IMG/VR virus record: IMGVR_UViG_2541047847_000003
Coordinates: 1 to 11,496 of that record
Source: a virus
Lineage: Duplodnaviria; Heunggongvirae; Uroviricota; Caudoviricetes
Length of the DNA: 11,496 bases
Direction: 5' to 3' (one strand)
How positions within the stretch are numbered: position 1 is the first letter of the stretch; every line of letters begins with the position of its first letter. The notes beneath the pieces were generated by a model. That model saw only the letters and a list, made by a program, of their open reading frames with translations. It did no database searches and was not told the origin of the DNA. Positions 1-11,496 of this stretch are shown in pieces. Made by a program: the position numbers and the translations under genes.

Positions 1-95
1 AGTTTGCTCCTGCCATAACGTGAAGAAGCAATGACCTGGTGGTCCGTGACTTCCCTACGCTGGCATTATCCAGATCAGGTGATACGGGTATTTCT
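1..95 (-). promoter_or_regulatory. thiM: 3' part of the thiM TPP riboswitch (aptamer 3' half plus expression platform); thiM start codon lies just beyond the left edge
   Basis: Reverse complement of 1..95 reads AGAAAUACCCGUAUCACCUGAUCUGGAUAAUGCCAGCGUAGGGAAGUCACGGACCACCAGGUCAUUGCUUCUUCACGUUAUGGCAGGAGCAAACU, which matches the well-studied E. coli thiM thi-box leader as I recall it. Confidence 0.85.
82..95. other. attL core: 14-bp ATACGGGTATTTCT, identical to the copy at 11083..11096
   Basis: Exact 14-bp direct repeat at both island ends; flanking bases differ on both sides (81 g vs 11082 a; 96 t vs 11097 c). The repeat lies inside the riboswitch sequence. Confidence 0.75.
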
Positions 96-160
96 TACTA
101 ATTACTTTTACCAGTTGATAATAAATAAGTTTTTAAGAACGCATAAATTAAAAACCTCAG

Positions 161-235
161 AACTGACCACACAACTGACCACACATTTTGTTGAAGCTCT
201 ACGAACAACGACGAACAATAACAAACAAAAGGGAA
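161..235. repeat. attL-proximal arm block: tandem AACTGACCACAC x2 followed by ACGAACAA-type repeats; homologous to 10929..10995
   Basis: AACTGACCACAC at 161..172 and 173..184. The roughly 75-bp block is about 80% identical (by eye) to the block beside int at the other end, in the same orientation. Confidence 0.6.
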
Positions 236-1134
236 ATTTGCTGGTGGTTTTGCTTAACCGTTATCATTTTTCGGCTATCCGTCATGAAGCTGGTGGATGA
301 TCACGGATAACCAGGCATCCACAGCGCCTTAAAAAGCTGAACCCGACAAACATTTCTGCTTATCGGGTCCGATCGCTCTTTCTGCTCGTGGCAGATGAGT
401 TTATTGGGAGAGGCGGAAACATTGTATCAGGCTATCCCCTTTCTGTGCTGATTTGCATAGTTGTATATAGCTGTGCGTCCACCAGACACGCAGGAATGGA
501 GTTTGTGAGGAACTATAAATCCTGCGCAAATTTTCCCGGCCCACTCAAATTGAGTTTTCCGAAAATATCAACGGCTTAGGCCAAAGCCCGAAAAAGGGCT
601 TTGTAAAAAATTAACCTAATACGGTCGCTTTAACCTACGGTAATCGTTCTGCTTCGGTGTGTGTCCCCTCTGCGGCCATCATGACCATGCCATAACAAAA
701 ACCCCATATTCGTGGTTTTTCTGTGTCGGGGCTATTCTGCTGTTGCCGTGCTGGTGGATATTCTCCGGTATGCGACTCCCCATATCGGCATCAGGCCCAC
801 CAGCGTGAAGCGTTTTTCATTTTTCGCGGGTATAAAAAATTGATGGGGCTGGCAGTCCGGAAGACGTCAGGGTACAGAGATTTGACCCGCCCCTCCCTGT
901 GCATAAGCACAATAAGTAACAGAAGGCGGAATTCCGCCCTCGGTACTCACATATGAGAAACGATATTTCTTCCACCGATACCCTTTATTTGGGTATCGCG
1001 AGTAAGCCCCAAAATCTGGGTGTTACTCTTACTACCCAAACTACGGGTGGTTTCCGTAGTTTCATGGTCGAGTTGCAGATCTGCAACTCACCCACCAGCC
1101 AACGCAATTTTGCGTTATCGGGAATATCAGGAAT

Positions 1135-4843: not shown

Positions 4844-4895
4844 AGGCTTTATCTCACAGCAGTAAATTAAAATTTTTGCGTTTTAACCCTTCACC

Positions 4896-5116
4896 TGTTC
4901 ACCTTTTGATATTTTATCTTTTAATTCATAATGTTAAGGGGTGAACAGTTTCACAAAAACTATTCACCAACTGTTCACCACTGTTCACCCTTGAAGCTCA
5001 ATAAACAATCAAAAAGGTGAACAGTGAATAGTTTGGTGAACAGTTCATAAATAACTGTTCACCCTATAACATACTGATACAAAAGATATTTATGACAGGG
5101 TGAACAGTGGTGAACA
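4896..5116. repeat. Origin-like iteron cluster: about 10 copies of TGTTCACC/GGTGAACA in both orientations with AT-rich spacers (P4 ori/crr type)
   Basis: TGTTCACC at 4896, 4972, 4982, 5056; GGTGAACA at 4940, 5016, 5035, 5099, 5109; variants at 4961 and 5024. Immediately downstream of the alpha-like gene. Confidence 0.85.
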
Positions 5117-5130
5117 GTTATTCCATAAGT

Positions 5131-6948
5131 TTAATTTTTGCTATCGTCATTAGTGACCGATACACATGATGGCATCCAGTCTTCTGATTCCTCCGTCAGT
5201 GTCACGTTTGAACGCAAACCGTGCTTCGTTTTCCGTTTCATATACTCCCTGCCATATTCCGCCATTGCCCCCGGCATATCTTTACCGAAGCGCGTCAGTG
5301 TTACAGGTTTACCAAACCCATGTGCCCTCATATAAGCCAGATAGGCATGATAGAGATACCTGCGTGGGCTGAATGGCACAATTTCAGCATTACCCACTAA
5401 CAGGCCATCACACATTACCGACGCCATGAGATAGCCGCAGAAGTCCACCAGCGAATCCCCCTCTCGCTTTATCGCCAGTGCTTCTTCAGATTTCTGCTGC
5501 TCATATAACAGGCGTCTGGCTTCGTCCTGGTCAGCAAACCGTGTAAGCAGATGGCGAATCACTACCGCCAACTCACCTTCTATTTTTTCCGCCAGCATTG
5601 GATCGCGTTCGTTCTCCGGTACAACTTCCGAAAAATTGAATATCACCCGACGACGTGAGATCCCCCCGCTGCGGTCACTGAATGACATGGCGTTATTGTT
5701 AACCGCCAGCACTACTGCCGGAATACGCGTTGAGTAGGGGGCTTTGTGTTTCGGGTCAATTGCCACCTTGTCACCGCCTGTAATGGCCTTAATTCCTGCC
5801 CCATCACCAGCGTAGCGGGTCATATCCGGCATGATAATCAGCGAAAAGCCAACCACTAACGCGCGTTCCCTTGCATCTTCCAGCGCCTTCATGCTTGCCG
5901 ATACTGTGTTGGCCTTACCCGCCAGCATGGTGCAAATCTCCGCCATCACGCTTTTACCACTTCCCCCTGGACCTGTTACCTCAATGAATAACTGCCAGTC
6001 GTACCGGTTCGCCAGCACCATGAATAATGCAGCCAGTACGCGATCCGCCTTGCGGTCATTCTCAGCCACCGAACGGCGTAACCACTTCCAGAAATTCGGC
6101 GCATGTGTTGCCAGCGTTTCCCCCTCTGCTGGTGGGCTGAAAGGTAATTCACTGGCAATTAACAACCAGTCGTTTTTGTTATGCTCCCGAAAATTACCTG
6201 TTCTGGTATCAAATACCCCGTTACTGAATCCAATCAGGTTACGGGCTGTATTCCCCATTACAGGCAAACTTAACTTCATGGTATCGACCGCCGATTTAAT
6301 GGCGTTCTGCGAATAGCTGATCTCTGCATCAATGAAAATCTGCGCCATAGCTCGCTGTAATTCTTTATCCTGTACTGGCTCCCATACAACGCCGTTGTAA
6401 TGGTGAACAGTGTCAGAGTCAGCATGAATCGCCAGTTCACCGCCATAATGTGCCAGGAGAACTTCGCCGCGTTGACTTGCTCCCATCTGGTTAAGCGCCA
6501 GTGATGAAGCGTTATCGTCTTTTACCCGCTCTTTTTTCTTTACAGGCAGTTCAACTACCTTTTTCTTTTCCGCCAGCTCTGCCCGTTCACGTTCCAGATA
6601 TTCGCGCCAGTTCTCCCGTTTCTGGCTGTGCATTCCTTCAGGGTAATAATCAGCATCCCTGACACCTGCCGCTGCCAGTTTCTGCCCGATGGTATTAACA
6701 AGCCCCGGACGCAATAACCCCGCCTGATAGAGACGCACGCGATAGCGTCCGTCCGGTACGATTTGCAGGTTGTCCAGTTCGGCAAGTTGTTGCTCTCCAA
6801 GCCAGACAGGAGGCACGTTATCGCCAGCCAGTCGCCCGTCCTGTTCCTGCCACTGCTTCGCATGTGCCCACGCATCACTACCCGCAAAAATGATGACTTC
6901 CGTCATTTTGTCACGCGGCTGGTGTTTTAAATTTGGCGCTTTTTTCAT
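5131..6948 (-). CDS. P4 alpha-like replication protein (primase/helicase family, D5-type P-loop NTPase)
   Basis: Walker A GPGGSGKS and a Walker B-like hydrophobic stretch; adjacent TGTTCACC iterons. Start set at the ATG giving MKKAPNL (GGAGAGAG upstream); the ORF track start at 6963 is a GTG. No primase catalytic motif was identified by eye. Confidence 0.8.
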   Translation of the reverse strand: MKKAPNLKHQPRDKMTEVIIFAGSDAWAHAKQWQEQDGRLAGDNVPPVWLGEQQLAELDNLQIVPDGRYRVRLYQAGLLRPGLVNTIGQKLAAAGVRDADYYPEGMHSQKRENWREYLERERAELAEKKKVVELPVKKKERVKDDNASSLALNQMGASQRGEVLLAHYGGELAIHADSDTVHHYNGVVWEPVQDKELQRAMAQIFIDAEISYSQNAIKSAVDTMKLSLPVMGNTARNLIGFSNGVFDTRTGNFREHNKNDWLLIASELPFSPPAEGETLATHAPNFWKWLRRSVAENDRKADRVLAALFMVLANRYDWQLFIEVTGPGGSGKSVMAEICTMLAGKANTVSASMKALEDARERALVVGFSLIIMPDMTRYAGDGAGIKAITGGDKVAIDPKHKAPYSTRIPAVVLAVNNNAMSFSDRSGGISRRRVIFNFSEVVPENERDPMLAEKIEGELAVVIRHLLTRFADQDEARRLLYEQQKSEEALAIKREGDSLVDFCGYLMASVMCDGLLVGNAEIVPFSPRRYLYHAYLAYMRAHGFGKPVTLTRFGKDMPGAMAEYGREYMKRKTKHGLRSNVTLTEESEDWMPSCVSVTNDDSKN

Positions 6949-7244
6949 TTCTGCTCTCTCCACGCGGCAATCATGTTTTTCAGTTCCTGTAGTTTTTTAT
7001 CCACATCCACACGTGACACATGGTTATTTCTGGAAGTCGGGATTTCCCGCCGGAATCTGCAAATAAAGATCTCCACGTTCAGCGAACTAAGAAATGAATA
7101 GCCATCACGAATAAAATACACACGGTCAAACATCAGTTCTTTTACCGTTACTCTGTTACCGTTCTTATCCAGATAAATAGCGCCGGGGATAATTTTGGGG
7201 TGTGCATAACCGCTGGCAGTCAAGCCAGATAAATATGTTCTCAT
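6945..7244 (-). CDS. Hypothetical protein, 99 aa, translationally coupled to the alpha-like gene
   Basis: Stop overlaps the alpha start (ATGA); no recognisable motifs. Confidence 0.55.
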   Translation of the reverse strand: MRTYLSGLTASGYAHPKIIPGAIYLDKNGNRVTVKELMFDRVYFIRDGYSFLSSLNVEIFICRFRREIPTSRNNHVSRVDVDKKLQELKNMIAAWREQK

Positions 7245-7250
7245 GATTAT

Positions 7251-7571
7251 TTATCCCCGATTTGAATCAGTATTCGCTTTCTTTATGGCATTTAATGCAT
7301 CTGTGGCATTTTCAATGGTGCACCGTAACGAAATATCAAACTGCCCAAGCATTGCCAGTAACAAACCGATATTACCCATATCAATGCGCATAGCCTTTTC
7401 GTCATAGTCCTCATTTTCTGACGCATGCCACATCAGACTACCAATTGACGCAACAGCCATTGATATATTGTCAGTAGCCCCATCCGCAGCGGAATAAACC
7501 TTTTTAGCAATATCATGCTCACAGTTAAAATGCGGATTAATCAGGTACTGGTAATTTGACATATCAGGCAT
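7251..7571 (-). CDS. Hypothetical protein, 106 aa
   Basis: ORF in the same operon; its start overlaps the stop of the upstream 67-aa ORF (ATGCCTGA). Confidence 0.55.
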   Translation of the reverse strand: MPDMSNYQYLINPHFNCEHDIAKKVYSAADGATDNISMAVASIGSLMWHASENEDYDEKAMRIDMGNIGLLLAMLGQFDISLRCTIENATDALNAIKKANTDSNRG

Positions 7572-7767
7572 GGCACACCCCCTGACGAATACGGGCGGCG
7601 AATACCATCACGCAGCCAGCCGGGGATTGCTGGCGTGCTTCCTGTTCGCTGGTGGCCACGATGTGAATCACGCGCGGTTGTGCGGTGCTCAGGGCGATAA
7701 AACGCCAGATGTATTTATTCAGGTCGTGCGAGTCCCGCCCTTGCGGGTGTGTGGTATGATTTCTCAT
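7564..7767 (-). CDS. Hypothetical small protein, 67 aa, first gene of the replication operon
   Basis: Internal ATG of the 320-aa track ORF, preceded by GAGG; the sequence upstream in that frame looks non-coding. Stop is coupled to the next gene. Confidence 0.45.
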   Translation of the reverse strand: MRNHTTHPQGRDSHDLNKYIWRFIALSTAQPRVIHIVATSEQEARQQSPAGCVMVFAARIRQGVCHA

Positions 7768-7863
7768 AGCTACCTCGATACGCTTTCTATCGTTGGTGGT
7801 TAGAAGCCCGGTTAGTGTTAGCGCACTGCCGGGTTTCGTCGTTTCTGCACCTTGCATCAACAA

Positions 7864-7917
7864 GGTGTTGAACACCAATTTAAGCCTAGGTGTTAAACAC
7901 GTCAAGTGTTGAACACT
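7864..7917. promoter_or_regulatory. Three operator-like inverted repeats (GGTGTTGAACACC, GGTGTTAAACAC, AGTGTTGAACACT) in a divergent promoter region
   Basis: Repeats at 7864..7876, 7889..7900 and 7905..7917. The third overlaps a candidate -35 (TTGAAC) placed 17 bp from CATACT for the plus-strand gene. Confidence 0.6.
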
Positions 7918-7966
7918 TATTTTTTTTCCTGCATACTGCATTTGTTTTTTGTAAGGGGTACACAAC

Positions 7967-8146
7967 ATGGCGACAAAAGCAGTAAACGCAAAATCACAAA
8001 CAGTTGCGGCAAGGGTTCCGCATGAAGTTATGAACAATGTTGAGGCGGTAAAAATGCCTGGTGAAAGTACAGGGCAGTTTGTAACAGCAGCATTAAAGCG
8101 AGAAGTTGAATACCGCCAGCGTCGCAAGGCCAAAGAGCAGGAGTAA
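7967..8146 (+). CDS. Small ribbon-helix-helix-like protein, 59 aa; candidate repressor
   Basis: Below the ORF-track length cutoff. AGGGG Shine-Dalgarno 8 nt upstream. Pattern QTVAARVPHEVMNNVEAV...GESTGQFVTAALKRE fits a beta-strand/helix/helix RHH layout. Confidence 0.5.
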   Translation: MATKAVNAKSQTVAARVPHEVMNNVEAVKMPGESTGQFVTAALKREVEYRQRRKAKEQE

Positions 8147-8203
8147 CCATCACCAGCGCCGTGGTGCGGTGAACTGTGGCGCACAGGGTTACAGGTATCT
8201 ACG

Positions 8204-8383
8204 ATGACTGACAAATCATTAAAGAAATTATCCTCATCCAAGAAAAAACAACGCAAAAATGCGGTAAACGAACATGAACCGGAGAGATTCGCACCATGTG
8301 CGTTTGTCCTTGAGAAGTACCTTAAAGAGTATTCTAGGAAAATACGCTCATTGCAGGCATGGCAGCGAATCGAGCCAGACTGA
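8204..8383 (+). CDS. Hypothetical small basic protein, 59 aa
   Basis: ORF found by hand downstream of the RHH-like gene and before the plus-strand terminator; weak Shine-Dalgarno. Confidence 0.3.
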   Translation: MTDKSLKKLSSSKKKQRKNAVNEHEPERFAPCAFVLEKYLKEYSRKIRSLQAWQRIEPD

Positions 8384-8447
8384 TAGCATTGCCCACCAGC
8401 CAACAACCTGGTATTCTGGATATGCTCAAGTTTAGTGTTATGCCACT

Positions 8448-8477
8448 GGCGACCGCCCTTGGTCGCCTTTGTTTTAT
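8448..8477 (+). terminator. Rho-independent terminator (plus strand)
   Basis: GGCGACC, loop GCCCTT, GGTCGCC, followed by TTTGTTTTAT. Confidence 0.6.
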
Positions 8478-8494
8478 GTGTCATAGCTCCCCCC

Positions 8495-8719
8495 CTACGC
8501 TGCCTTACCTGAATTAACGCGGTCACGGCTTTGCACCCAGTCCATAACTTCGGAAAGCAACCAGCCTACAGAACGCCCCCCAAGATTACGGCGAGACGGA
8601 AAGCCCCCTTTCTTCTCCAGTTCGTAGCGTGTAGTACGGCTGACGCCTGTTAACTTACGACATTCATCTTCACGAATTACGCGATCTGTTAGTGATTGAA
8701 ATTGTGTATTTTGATTCAT
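8495..8719 (-). CDS. alpA: AlpA-family transcriptional regulator / excisionase-like HTH protein
   Basis: 74 aa; RKLTGVSRTTRYELEKKGGFPSRRNLGGRSVGWLLSEVMDWV matches the AlpA/Vis-type HTH pattern; GAGGG Shine-Dalgarno. Confidence 0.8.
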   Translation of the reverse strand: MNQNTQFQSLTDRVIREDECRKLTGVSRTTRYELEKKGGFPSRRNLGGRSVGWLLSEVMDWVQSRDRVNSGKAA

Positions 8720-8822
8720 AAAAACACCCTCGAACGTAACCGAACAAGGGCATCTTATTTACCATAGCAGTTGGTGCAATATTGGAAAAATAAACTTTAT
8801 TCTAATTTATCGTTCTCCATGA

Positions 8823-9677
8823 TTAATTTTCATTAGATAACATTTTTCTTATTTTTTCTAAAGAATCGCTGCGCATTATTTTTTCTAAGAAGGGTTTTAC
8901 AGTCTGAGCAATAGCAAAGGTGTCCTTTTCACCATCAGGATACAAAGATACGGCAAGCACCCCTAATGAAATTTTTCTATCTGTAGACAACTCCCAAGAT
9001 AATAAGTCAATTAATGGGATTATCTTATAATCAATAATTTTACGTCGTATGCTCTCCCAACTTCCTGCAATTGGTTTGTCTGGCTCAACAATTGAAAGTT
9101 CACTACGCCATTTTGGTAATAGTTTTGTAAACGCTTCAATCAACTCATCATCTCTGTTATGTAGTAAGTCAACAGAAACAAGCATATTATCTAATGTATC
9201 AGAAAGGAGATTCACTGGTTCACGCATCACAGCCCAAAACATCCCATTATCTTCTGATATTAAACTTCCAACCATCTCATTATCTATGATGATTGGTTTA
9301 TCCTTCCAATATCCTCTTTCCGCAGTCAGTTTATTAATCATTGATATATCAAACCTTGTTACAGGTTTAATTCCATCATCATAACTTAGCTCAATTAACT
9401 TCGGCTGCACTTTATGGTCATATTCTTTTTGTTTATCACAAAACCAATCGTCTTCTTTCAGCTCTCCAAATGGATCCCCATAATTATTATGCAACGGGTA
9501 TTCAGCACCAAACATAAAACCATATTCAGGCATCTCAGAATGTTTCATTGTTAAATCATCTTGTCGCCAATATAATTGGCGAAATAGATCTTTATCCGAC
9601 AAGTTTTCTAGGCAATCATATTTGCCTAAATCAAATGACTTTGGTAAATCTTTTTTACTATTTACTTTTTTCGTCAT
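8823..9677 (-). CDS. Hypothetical 284-aa protein, AT-rich cargo gene immediately downstream of int
   Basis: Long ORF whose start overlaps the int stop by 4 bp. Visibly more AT-rich than the neighbouring genes (not computed). No motif I recognise. Confidence 0.7.
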   Translation of the reverse strand: MTKKVNSKKDLPKSFDLGKYDCLENLSDKDLFRQLYWRQDDLTMKHSEMPEYGFMFGAEYPLHNNYGDPFGELKEDDWFCDKQKEYDHKVQPKLIELSYDDGIKPVTRFDISMINKLTAERGYWKDKPIIIDNEMVGSLISEDNGMFWAVMREPVNLLSDTLDNMLVSVDLLHNRDDELIEAFTKLLPKWRSELSIVEPDKPIAGSWESIRRKIIDYKIIPLIDLLSWELSTDRKISLGVLAVSLYPDGEKDTFAIAQTVKPFLEKIMRSDSLEKIRKMLSNEN

Positions 9678-10894
9678 TGTATCCCTCTCAATATCACAAT
9701 ATTTTCATTATATCCTGCAATCATATCAAGACGCTCAACCCATAGATGCAGTGCGTCCCGTTTCGCCTGCAAATAGCGTGAATGGTTATAGGTTTTTTGC
9801 TGACCTGGCATCTGATGCGCTGTGATGTGCTCCACGATATGCGGATCGACACCTAAATCATTCAGCATAGTTGTAAACGTGTGTCGGAAATCATGCAGCG
9901 TCCAGTGTTCCTGCTTAAGCCGCTTATGCGCATTTCGTCCATATTGCGCCACCGTGGTATCTTTTTTCAGTTCGCCGAGTAATAACCCAGTGTGTGCGTT
10001 TTGCTCCACCAGCTTCTGAATGAACGGCAAAATACCATCAGGAATAGGTCGGAATATTGTTACCTTCGTTTTGCTGTGCTCTTTTGGCACTGTCCACAAC
10101 ATTTCTTTCAGATCCCATTCTTTGATCTCTGAAAGTCTGATCTCTGCCGTTCTGCACCCGAACACAATTAACAAGCGCATTAACGCACTGTAATAGGGAG
10201 CGAACACATCACCATCAATAGCGCGTAGAATTTCTTTTAGTTCGCTGTTGCTGTGCACTCTCTCGCGGATTTCTGCTCTCTTACCCACATCAGTAACGAT
10301 CAAATCGTCCAGGGCGTTGCTAAACGCGTAGCGCCGCCTGCGGCAAAACTTTAGCGCCTGTTTGCATGTCTGCATGACATGGCCCGCTGCTACTGGTGCT
10401 TTTTTTCGTACGCGGTCAAAACATGCGATCCACTGCCTTGTATCACACTTATCAAGGGGAATTGCCCCGATATGGCAAATGATGTGCTTATCCATACGCT
10501 GCACCAGCTTTATGTAATCTTTGCGGTTATCCTTCGCGTATTCCTCCAGCCAGTAGTTAATCGCTTCCTTCACCGTAACGGGTTTTAGTGCTTCCTGTAC
10601 TGTGGCGCACAACTCATACCGAGGGTTTTTACCCTCAGCCAGCCATGCCCGGCACTGTGTTCGCTTTTCCCTTGCAGATTTCAGCGACAATTCCGGGTAA
10701 GCCCCCAGCTTTAACCGCTCTGCGGCAACCTCACGGCCTCCCGTTCGGTACCGGAAATACCAGGTTAATTTACCTCCCTTTGAGTGTTTAATCTCCAGCC
10801 CGCCCCCGTCGGAGTAAAAACGTTCTTTTTCTGCCTGGACAGCCACCAATTTTTTTAACGTTGAATCGCTCAGTTTGTTTAGTGCTTTTCCCAC
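9674..10894 (-). CDS. int: Tyrosine recombinase, P4-type integrase family
   Basis: 406 aa. N-terminal arm-binding-type region (GGKLTWYFRYRTGGREV...LGAYPELSLKSAREK); C-terminal catalytic motifs HDFRHTF and YNHSRY; GTG start. Confidence 0.9.
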   Translation of the reverse strand: MGKALNKLSDSTLKKLVAVQAEKERFYSDGGGLEIKHSKGGKLTWYFRYRTGGREVAAERLKLGAYPELSLKSAREKRTQCRAWLAEGKNPRYELCATVQEALKPVTVKEAINYWLEEYAKDNRKDYIKLVQRMDKHIICHIGAIPLDKCDTRQWIACFDRVRKKAPVAAGHVMQTCKQALKFCRRRRYAFSNALDDLIVTDVGKRAEIRERVHSNSELKEILRAIDGDVFAPYYSALMRLLIVFGCRTAEIRLSEIKEWDLKEMLWTVPKEHSKTKVTIFRPIPDGILPFIQKLVEQNAHTGLLLGELKKDTTVAQYGRNAHKRLKQEHWTLHDFRHTFTTMLNDLGVDPHIVEHITAHQMPGQQKTYNHSRYLQAKRDALHLWVERLDMIAGYNENIVILRGIQ

Positions 10895-10928
10895 TATCAG
10901 ATCCTCTTTTCAGTCCTCCAGCCTCAAA

Positions 10929-10995
10929 AAACTGACCACACAACTGACCACACATTTCGCTGAAACTCGGCAAACAACAACGAACAGCAACAAAC
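10929..10995. repeat. int-proximal arm block: tandem AACTGACCACAC x2 plus CAACAACGAACA-type repeats; homologous to 161..235
   Basis: AACTGACCACAC at 10929..10940 and 10941..10952, about 30 bp upstream of the int start. Confidence 0.6.
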
Positions 10996-11082
10996 GAGAA
11001 AGCCAATTAAATCATTGTATATCAAACATATACACAAACAATCACGAACATCCCAGAACTACAAAAAACACTAAATGAGAAA

Positions 11083-11096
11083 ATACGGGTATTTCT
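11083..11096. other. attR core: ATACGGGTATTTCT
   Basis: Identical to 82..95; continuous on its right with chromosomal thiM leader sequence. Confidence 0.75.
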
Positions 11097-11127
11097 CAGC
11101 CTTCACAAAGAAGGGCACCCCGAGTCG
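11083..11127 (-). promoter_or_regulatory. thiM: 5' part of the thiM TPP riboswitch aptamer, separated from its 3' half by the island
   Basis: Reverse complement reads CGACUCGGGGUGCCCUUCUUUGUGAAGGCUGAGAAAUACCCGUAU, the 5' half of the thiM aptamer including the conserved CUGAGA element. Confidence 0.8.
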
Positions 11128-11223
11128 TTTGGTTGCGATAATAAATCGCAGAGGAGGATGGTAATGTCCAGCGCACGCGTTGTAAACGGGGAAAAACGGC
11201 GGTATTACAATAACGTTGTGAAA

Positions 11224-11496
11224 TTATTTGATATAAGAATCCAGCACCTTCAGAACGACATCCAGATCTTCTTCTCGTTTTAGCTCATCCCCCTGGTGAA
11301 CGATGTGTTCCGTCAGATGGCCTTTAATCACTTCCCGCATCAGACCGTTTACCGCGCCACGGATAGCAGCAATCTGTTGTAAAACTGCAGCGCATTCATG
11401 CGGTTCGTCGAGCATTTTCTTGAGCGCCACGACCTGGCCCTGAATCTTACTGGCACGCGCTTTCAGTTTCTGTTTATCACGGATTGTATGAGACAT
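11224..11496 (-). CDS. rcnR: Ni/Co-responsive transcriptional repressor RcnR (CsoR/RcnR family)
   Basis: 90-aa translation [61 protein letters not shown]... matches E. coli RcnR as I recall it; complete CDS ending at the window edge. Confidence 0.85.

Follow-up and report, generated by a model that had tools for sequence, protein, structure and literature searches.

Two matching blocks of sequence lie just inside the two ends of an integrated phage satellite, and most likely they are the docking sites that would let its integrase, Int, and probably also its AlpA protein, move the island into and out of the chromosome. At positions 161-226 and 10930-10995 they form the strongest direct repeat in the window (the whole 11,496-nt stretch of DNA analysed here), ungapped over 66 nt, co-oriented and 86% identical, with an E value of 4e-12 by BLAST within the island. 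Each block opens with AACTGACCACAC twice, a tandem dimer with a period of 12, and its second part consists of three CGAACAA-like repeats at 10-bp spacing; the island also carries alpA, a gene of the family of recombination directionality factors (RDFs). The repeat is conserved, keeps a fixed geometry and occurs across a whole integrase family, in which dimer type and AlpA type assort independently. We propose that the blocks serve as protein-binding modules, one on each arm of the satellite attP, and that integration would have separated them.

A phage satellite in the thiM riboswitch

The window holds an island of about 11 kb, flanked by two copies of ATACGGGTATTTCT at 82-95 and 11083-11096, and this island is a phage satellite of the PICI type. 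Its genes all lie on the minus strand. The N-domain of Int matches the Pfam family PF13356, 'Arm DNA-binding domain', over residues 8-94 (E 1.1e-17) and is homologous to the solved N-domains of CP4-like integrases, PDB 3JTZ (E 4e-8) and 3JU0, and the product of alpA is a probable RDF. The features to which the text refers are as follows.

82..95 (+): att core at the thiM-side junction, ATACGGGTATTTCT; exact 14-bp direct repeat with 11083-11096; within the thiM TPP riboswitch
161..184 (+): int-distal arm dimer, AACTGACCACAC twice (GTGTGGTCAGTT twice on the int strand); candidate arm-type Int sites
185..200 (+): spacer from the dimer to the 10-bp array, ATTTTGTTGAAGCTCT, 16 nt; partly conserved between arms and among islands
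201..230 (+): int-distal 10-bp-spaced array, ACGAACAACG / ACGAACAATA / ACAAACAAAA; reverse complement TTGTTCG-like; candidate AlpA (RDF) array
254..300 (+): 47-nt element inside the distal arm, GCTTAACCGTTATCATTTTTCGGCTATCCGTCATGAAGCTGGTGGATG; contains a Chi sequence; conserved in 11 of 11 thiM islands
5131-6963 (-): D5-type primase/helicase gene, preceded by GGTGAACAGT iterons
8495..8719 (-): alpA, AlpA-family wHTH regulator; Pfam PF05930, E 4.8e-16; PHROG 'excisionase and transcriptional regulator'
9674..10894 (-): int, tyrosine integrase; PF00589 (Phage_integrase) with N-terminal PF13356 (Arm-DNA-bind_3)
10930..10953 (+): int-proximal arm dimer, AACTGACCACAC twice; ending 36 nt upstream of the int start codon
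10970..10999 (+): int-proximal 10-bp-spaced array, GCAAACAACA / ACGAACAGCA / ACAAACGAGA
11035..11056 (+): additional CGAACA-like units near the core on the int-proximal arm, ACAAACAATCACGAACATCC
11083..11096 (+): att core at the rcnR-side junction; exact 14-bp repeat of 82-95
minus strand: genes for a gpE-like capsid protein and a gpD-like decoration protein
minus strand: second AlpA-like gene (AlpA2) and Nu1-like small terminase gene
minus strand: other island genes, namely a DUF6387 gene, a DUF4222 gene and an SSB gene

The insertion point is the aptamer of the thiM TPP riboswitch, which the island has split. Its 3' half, at 35-95 on the minus strand, remains with thiM, and its 5' half, beyond 11083, has been left together with the thiM promoter on the rcnR side, at 11083-11140 on the minus strand. 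The Rfam TPP match at 35-122 (minus strand) reaches only 34 bits against a gathering score of 54, its P2/P3 part having been replaced by the end of the island. As a consequence of the split, thiM-thiD lose both their promoter and their riboswitch. The right end of the window contains rcnR, and E. coli records have the identical context of thiD-thiM, island and rcnR. A thiM-site island with both arms is present in 76 of 5426 complete E. coli genomes; our literature search found no description of the thiM riboswitch as the target of a satellite.

Several other features of the island deserve mention. Islands (L001-L010, L093, L107, L169) combine int/att and cargo modules in different ways: the thiM integrase is found with at least four cargo types, the cargo of the window (AlpA2 99% identical) is also paired with the integrase of helper-embedded PICIs (HE-PICIs), and its AlpA (92% identical) with a cspD-clpS integrase. 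A lambda-type cos site lies at 2107-2118 on the minus strand, with surroundings to about 2060, where cosN GGGCGGCGACCT is followed by CGCGGGTTTTCGCTATTTATGA upstream of the Nu1-like small terminase gene; a Chi sequence (GCTGGTGG) adjoins it. Packaging of this satellite is apparently of the lambda-like cos kind, with gpE- and gpD-like capsid proteins that the island itself encodes. Upstream of the D5-type primase/helicase gene, 4895-5130 contains about eight GGTGAACAGT iterons, some in each orientation, and is a likely replication origin. On the plus strand, three Chi sequences (241-248, 289-296 and 750-757) fall within 700 nt of the left end, and the one at 289-296 is conserved in 10 of 11 islands. 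A 320-aa open reading frame at 7564-8526 (minus strand) looks spurious, RefSeq records giving small Icd-like and YlcI/YnfO genes in its place; inside it, at 7768-7840 on the plus strand, there is a weak SymR-like Rfam match (33 bits, gathering score 61).

Geometry and conservation of the two arms

The first-pass annotation of this DNA had described a block of about 75 bp and about 80% identity just inside each core, and the description is borne out: when extended to 75 nt, around the 66-nt stretch at 86%, the copies agree at 60 of 75 positions (80%). The start given for the left copy, 161, is correct, and the right copy begins at 10930 instead of 10929. That each block starts with a tandem dimer and that the two are co-oriented is likewise confirmed, the exact 12-mer AACTGACCACAC occurring only four times in the window, at 161, 173, 10930 and 10942, always on the plus strand; at up to two mismatches there are five matches against 0.78 expected. 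The longest perfect run common to both blocks is 28 nt (161-188 = 10930-10957). The left core is 65 nt from the left dimer, the right dimer 129 nt and the end of the right block 87 nt from the right core, and int lies on the opposite strand, 36 nt from the proximal dimer. The dimers are thus found on both arms, within about 150 bp of the crossover, and are unrelated in sequence to the 14-bp core. Read along the plus strand, the excised circle would have the order dimer, 16 nt, three 10-nt units, 83 nt, core, 65 nt, dimer, 16 nt, three 10-nt units.

This arrangement is kept among islands at the same site. Our comparison set comprised 11 thiM-site islands, the window and L001-L010, and covers the cargo type of the window, capsid-forming PICIs (HK97 capsid, large terminase), ClpP-capsid fusion types and others. 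All 11 have the same proximal dimer, and the distal dimer varies by a single A/C change, in its first copy. On the distal arm the dimer is 65 nt from the core in 11 of 11 islands, which represent at least four types of cargo; on the proximal arm this distance is 129 nt in 10 of 11 and 119 nt in L005. In the proximal arm of L005 (17060-17179) 10 nt of the spacer between dimer and core are deleted, about one helical turn, and the rotational phase is therefore roughly kept. The distal array is nearly invariant, and in the proximal array a central ACGAACA is invariant and the flanking units occur as two alleles. Identity is 0.968 for left blocks against left blocks and 0.923 for right against right. 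Outside the set, a Salmonella thiM island (L092) has an identical proximal dimer and an otherwise diverged arm; its Int is 86% identical to that of the window in the N-domain and 70% in the catalytic part. A comparison with the arm sites of related islands, proposed earlier as a check on the blocks, thus finds the dimers at fixed core distances in 11 of 11 thiM islands.

The dimer extends well beyond thiM. Among Int relatives fetched from other species, the far end of the island could be reached in eight: L011, L021, L029, L034, L043, L044 and L049, whose Int is 40-55% identical to that of the window, and L093 (66% overall), which sits at cspD-clpS. All eight have a tandem 12-bp dimer of their own just upstream of int and, 65-69 nt inside the distal core, a second copy of it in the same orientation. 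Between the arms of the seven distant relatives (L093 apart) similarity does not extend beyond the dimer of about 24 nt. At a threshold of at least 9 of 11 matches, a period-12 tandem was detected 26-71 nt upstream of int in 31 of 35 relatives, compared with 4.5% of random 110-nt windows, and in 16 of 35 the tandem is perfect, compared with 0.4% of random windows. The motifs, among them GTGTGGTCAG, GTGTAGTCAG, GTGTAGTTAA, GTGTATCACT, GTGTATTGCA, GGGTACATAT and TGTATAAACA, have in common a GT[A/G] core followed by four to five lineage-specific bases. Among Int relatives the sequence of the dimer changes and its position stays. A similar core, (A/T)TTCATGCC(G/A)TA, was met in L011, L034, L043, L044, L046 and L048, from Vibrio, Photobacterium, Shewanella and Tenebrionibacter, at a distance of about 170-200 nt from int on its upstream side, and further away in L048; its presence in such distant relatives suggests a common conserved target.

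The 47-nt element at 254-300 has a different distribution from the rest of the distal arm. In some 490 additional E. coli genomes the arm query finds a match to this part alone, and in the two of them that we examined, with islands at clpS and dinD, it lies at the distal island end. It is shared by satellites with other integrases and so is not part of the Int-specific arm; one idea is that it acts as an outward-facing promoter that drives int in the excised circle.

Could the blocks have some other function, or none? The int-proximal block had been thought to overlap the int promoter, and this gained no support: a scan with a sigma-70-like consensus found no site overlapping or next to it (nor did a promoter consensus scan of 1-1200 find any). 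Within 10800-11250 the scan picked up a single promoter-like site, the thiM promoter of the host (TTTACA-17-TACCAT at 11186-11158 on the minus strand); since the insertion it faces the island and reads across core and proximal arm in the direction of int. By eye a weak TTGTTT-16-TACAAT can be placed on the minus strand upstream of the block (-35 at 11040-11035, -10 at 11019-14), so the block more likely lies in the int leader. As the proximal module stands between the core and the int start codon, apparently within that leader, we infer that bound Int could damp int transcription by acting as a roadblock, as reported for IntS (PMC11963761). One might go further and regard the proximal block solely as an int promoter or operator, with the distal copy incidental; the block does end 35 nt upstream of the int start codon, and autoregulation by Int at attP is known for ICEMlSymR7A (PMC11963761). 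We give this account very little credence, since no promoter-like site overlaps the block and the distal copy is as well or better conserved (0.968 against 0.923) and keeps a constant distance to the core in every lineage that we examined.

Equally improbable is that the likeness of the blocks records a recent duplication, or gene conversion or recombination between the arms, and has no sequence-specific function. In L001, L006 and L010 the blocks are indeed 95-100% identical over the 66 nt, as such an event would leave them, but identity between left and right within an island (0.919) is not above that between islands (0.926), and we detect no signal of concerted evolution; moreover, dimer and distances are invariant where the surrounding spacers vary, and distant lineages have a dimer on both arms in a different sequence. 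That the two copies might recombine with each other had also been raised. With 28 nt of perfect identity, a RecA-dependent deletion is conceivable and the suggestion stands in principle, but no hybrid single block was found among the 76 E. coli genomes with these arms, all of which keep both copies, and the arms show no sign of homogenisation. We consider it least credible of all that the blocks encode similar peptides (frames 31-300 and 10875-11078, plus strand) or form a structured RNA. Both frames are open in the window, and PGAP calls the left one a 'hypothetical protein' in 4 of 10 fetched genomes; that frame, however, starts in host DNA, antisense to the riboswitch, is interrupted by stop codons in 5 of 11 islands, and has variable sites spread evenly over the codon positions (12/11/16). 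Fold z-scores for both blocks on both strands run from +0.19 to -1.35, and the sole nearby Rfam match is the split TPP riboswitch.

Candidate binders of the dimer and the array

Which protein reads the dimer? The pairing of proteins with parts of the block is something we infer. The N-terminal domain of Int is the probable reader, the tandem 12-mers being its candidate arm sites. Two 12-bp sites arranged head to tail, each reading GTGTGGTCAGTT on the int strand, would be bound by the arm domain of this CP4/P4-like tyrosine integrase, the two dimers would supply four half-sites for the four subunits of an Int tetramer, and the tetramer, spanning arms and core, would assemble the complexes for integration and excision. 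The earlier proposal of arm-type sites at these blocks gains from the position and make-up of the putative att arms, from the predicted arm domain of Int, from the fixed dimer in 11 islands and from the lineage-specific dimers on both arms of relatives. Across 42 lineages, motif classes are congruent with signatures in predicted beta-strands of the Int N-domain, although no simple residue-to-base rule was found between domain and dimer in these lineages. In the Salmonella island L092, dimer and N-domain are preserved together where the catalytic part of Int and the remaining arm have diverged, a pattern that also speaks for Int.

To discriminate between Int and AlpA we rely on islands in which AlpA type and dimer type are discordant. 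The window and L093 have AlpA proteins that are 92% identical and different dimers, GTGTGGTCAGTT and GTGTAGTYAATG, and L215, L216 and L217 share one other AlpA type (70-75% identical) and are split between the two dimer types, the GG-type of the window and the AG-type GTGTAGTTAATG. All four combinations of AlpA type and dimer type are thus found, so AlpA is unlikely to read the positions at which the dimers differ, and this independent assortment favours Int as the binder. In a Mantel test over 11 lineages, however, dimer distance correlated with AlpA identity (rho -0.54, p 0.0008) and not significantly with identity of the Int N-domain (rho -0.18). We attribute the stronger correlation with AlpA to shared descent, though the result does not favour Int, and because the dimer lies next to int in the excised circle, its co-inheritance with Int could reflect linkage alone. 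Together with the lack of a residue-to-base rule, these points keep our preference for Int from being firm.

The main competing account is that AlpA, as excisionase or activator, or another island protein binds the 12-mers, the arm sites of Int lying elsewhere, for example in the CGAACAA repeats; we regard it as rather unlikely. The authors who described a doubled motif in HE-PICIs named AlpA or an unknown protein as alternatives to Int (PMC10111431), dimer distance tracks AlpA identity better than Int N-domain identity overall, and tandem direct repeats are typical of winged-helix RDFs (PMC11963761, PMC7498355). Yet one and the same AlpA type (92% identical) is found beside different dimers, and one and the same dimer beside different AlpA types, and a period of 12 bp departs from the spacing of one helical turn that has been reported for RDF sites. 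AlpA of EcCICFT073 activates its own promoter, but no 12-mer-like site lies upstream of alpA; in the same island AlpA has no effect on Pint (PMC6092414). As for another island protein, DUF6387 is absent from many dimer-bearing islands. Binding of the dimer by Int also accords with the finding that int and attP suffice for integration of EcCICFT073, where Pint is unaffected by AlpA (PMC6092414).

For the 10-bp-spaced array, AlpA is the obvious candidate, because what is known of RDFs fits it: their sites are direct repeats one helical turn apart (PMC7498355), RdfS binds at about one molecule per 10 bp beside an arm site (PMC11963761), and EcCICFT073 AlpA, besides activating its own promoter, triggers excision (PMC6092414). 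We therefore assign the CGAACAA-like repeats, less confidently than the dimer to Int, to the winged helix of AlpA acting as RDF. The earlier mention of possible AlpA sites in the blocks would then apply to this array, for which AlpA is a reasonable second binder, and not to the dimer. A TTGTTCG-like array adjoins the dimer on both arms in thiM islands and in cspD-clpS islands (L093, L219), and is present on the int-proximal arm of L091, L215, L216 and L217, with the lineage variants TCGTCT and TTGTCCG; GTTCG clusters adjoin the core in L093, L215, L217 and the HE-PICI L112. Arrays of the CGAAC type also lie 85-140 nt upstream of alpA in L093, L215, L216 and L217, those of L216 and L217 matching the variants of their own arms, and in the window a TTGTTCG/CGTTCG pair, 10 nt apart, occupies 8731-8747, directly upstream of the alpA ATG. 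Sharing of k-mers between arm arrays and the region upstream of alpA is significant in only 2 of 6 lineages, and TTGTTCG is not significantly enriched in the window (4 found, 2.1 expected). One of these four matches falls in the cos region and may be there by chance. AlpA binding to the array is thus plausible, and the presence of an RDF array on both arms, which would be unusual, counts against it.

A more speculative extension, which we consider less likely than not, is that each arm carries a two-part landing pad, an Int dimer with an AlpA array, that AlpA coats both arms and uses the same array upstream of alpA, and that the 12-bp dimer, with its GT[A/G] core and four to five variable bases, is a readable and reprogrammable arm-site code that diversifies with the Int N-domain. 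In lambda, by comparison, the excision factor coats one arm. If the two-part pad were true, helper-phage induction of alpA would be linked directly to excision.

Whichever protein binds each part, the analysis gives a precise and testable attP map for satellites that are widespread in E. coli and Salmonella, with four 12-bp half-sites, two 30-bp arrays and fixed core distances. Such a map can be used for delimiting satellites and att sites in genomes, for choosing minimal attP fragments for integration vectors, and for designing experiments on how arm-site specificity is encoded; the general understanding of site-specific recombination is left unchanged by it.

Comparison with known attP systems

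The arm sites of heterobivalent integrases, such as lambda P1, P2 and P'1-3 and the repeats of P2 Int, are short, differ from the core, lie on both arms within about 150 bp and are bound by a separate N-domain. Lambda P1 and P'1-3 are co-oriented, and phage P2 has two direct repeats per arm. The window differs in having two plus two putative sites that are strictly tandem at 12-bp spacing, together with a predicted N-domain of the CP4/P4-like kind (PF13356).

ICEMlSymR7A has an attP of 283 bp with five IntS arm-type motifs, TGKTGGTATC; its winged-helix RDF, RdfS, binds a stretch of about 40 bp beside an arm site, just upstream of intS, and IntS bound at attP represses intS (PMC11963761). Its five arm sites are dispersed, unlike the two dimers of the window, and its RDF footprint is confined to one arm and yielded no consensus motif, whereas the candidate array described here is a clear repeat on both arms. 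In ICEKp1, the integrated form transcribes int from an adjacent host promoter and the excised form from a promoter at the far end (PMC13023037). The window resembles it in that the host thiM promoter points toward int and a conserved, outward-facing element (254-300) lies at the far end, although the promoter-like features of the window are weak.

The closest counterpart is the HE-PICI attP, which carries a doubled tgTGTATTGCan motif (tgTGTATTGCantgTGTATTGCa) at two places, in the same orientation and at 81 and 132 bp from its centre (PMC10111431, 2023). As possible binders the authors named the arm domains of Int, AlpA and some unknown protein, and they reported the motif to be absent from other PICIs (PMC10111431). 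The window has the same tandem 12-bp dimer in two co-oriented copies at asymmetric, fixed distances (about 72-84 and 136-148 bp from the core centre); the HE-PICI Int is homologous to that of the window (44-47% identical in the N-domain, 39% in the rest), the HE-PICI motif lies about 45 nt upstream of int, and some HE-PICIs share cargo with the window island (AlpA2 99% identical). The sequences differ, GTGTATTGCA in HE-PICIs against GTGTGGTCAGTT in the window, and the HE-PICI core motif TGTATTGC is absent here, only the GTGT start being common; the targets differ as well, late genes of prophages in the one and the thiM riboswitch in the other, and in the E. coli group to which the window belongs the dimer is joined to a 10-bp-spaced array. 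Since the doubled motif had already been described with a homologous Int, the dimer of the window is a new sequence version of a known feature. What our comparison adds is that the dimer is general to the integrase family, that it is joined here to a 10-bp array on both arms, and that the assortment of AlpA and dimer types favours Int as its reader. The 'doubled motif' of one satellite clade thus becomes a general property of an integrase family, in which each lineage has its own sequence version.
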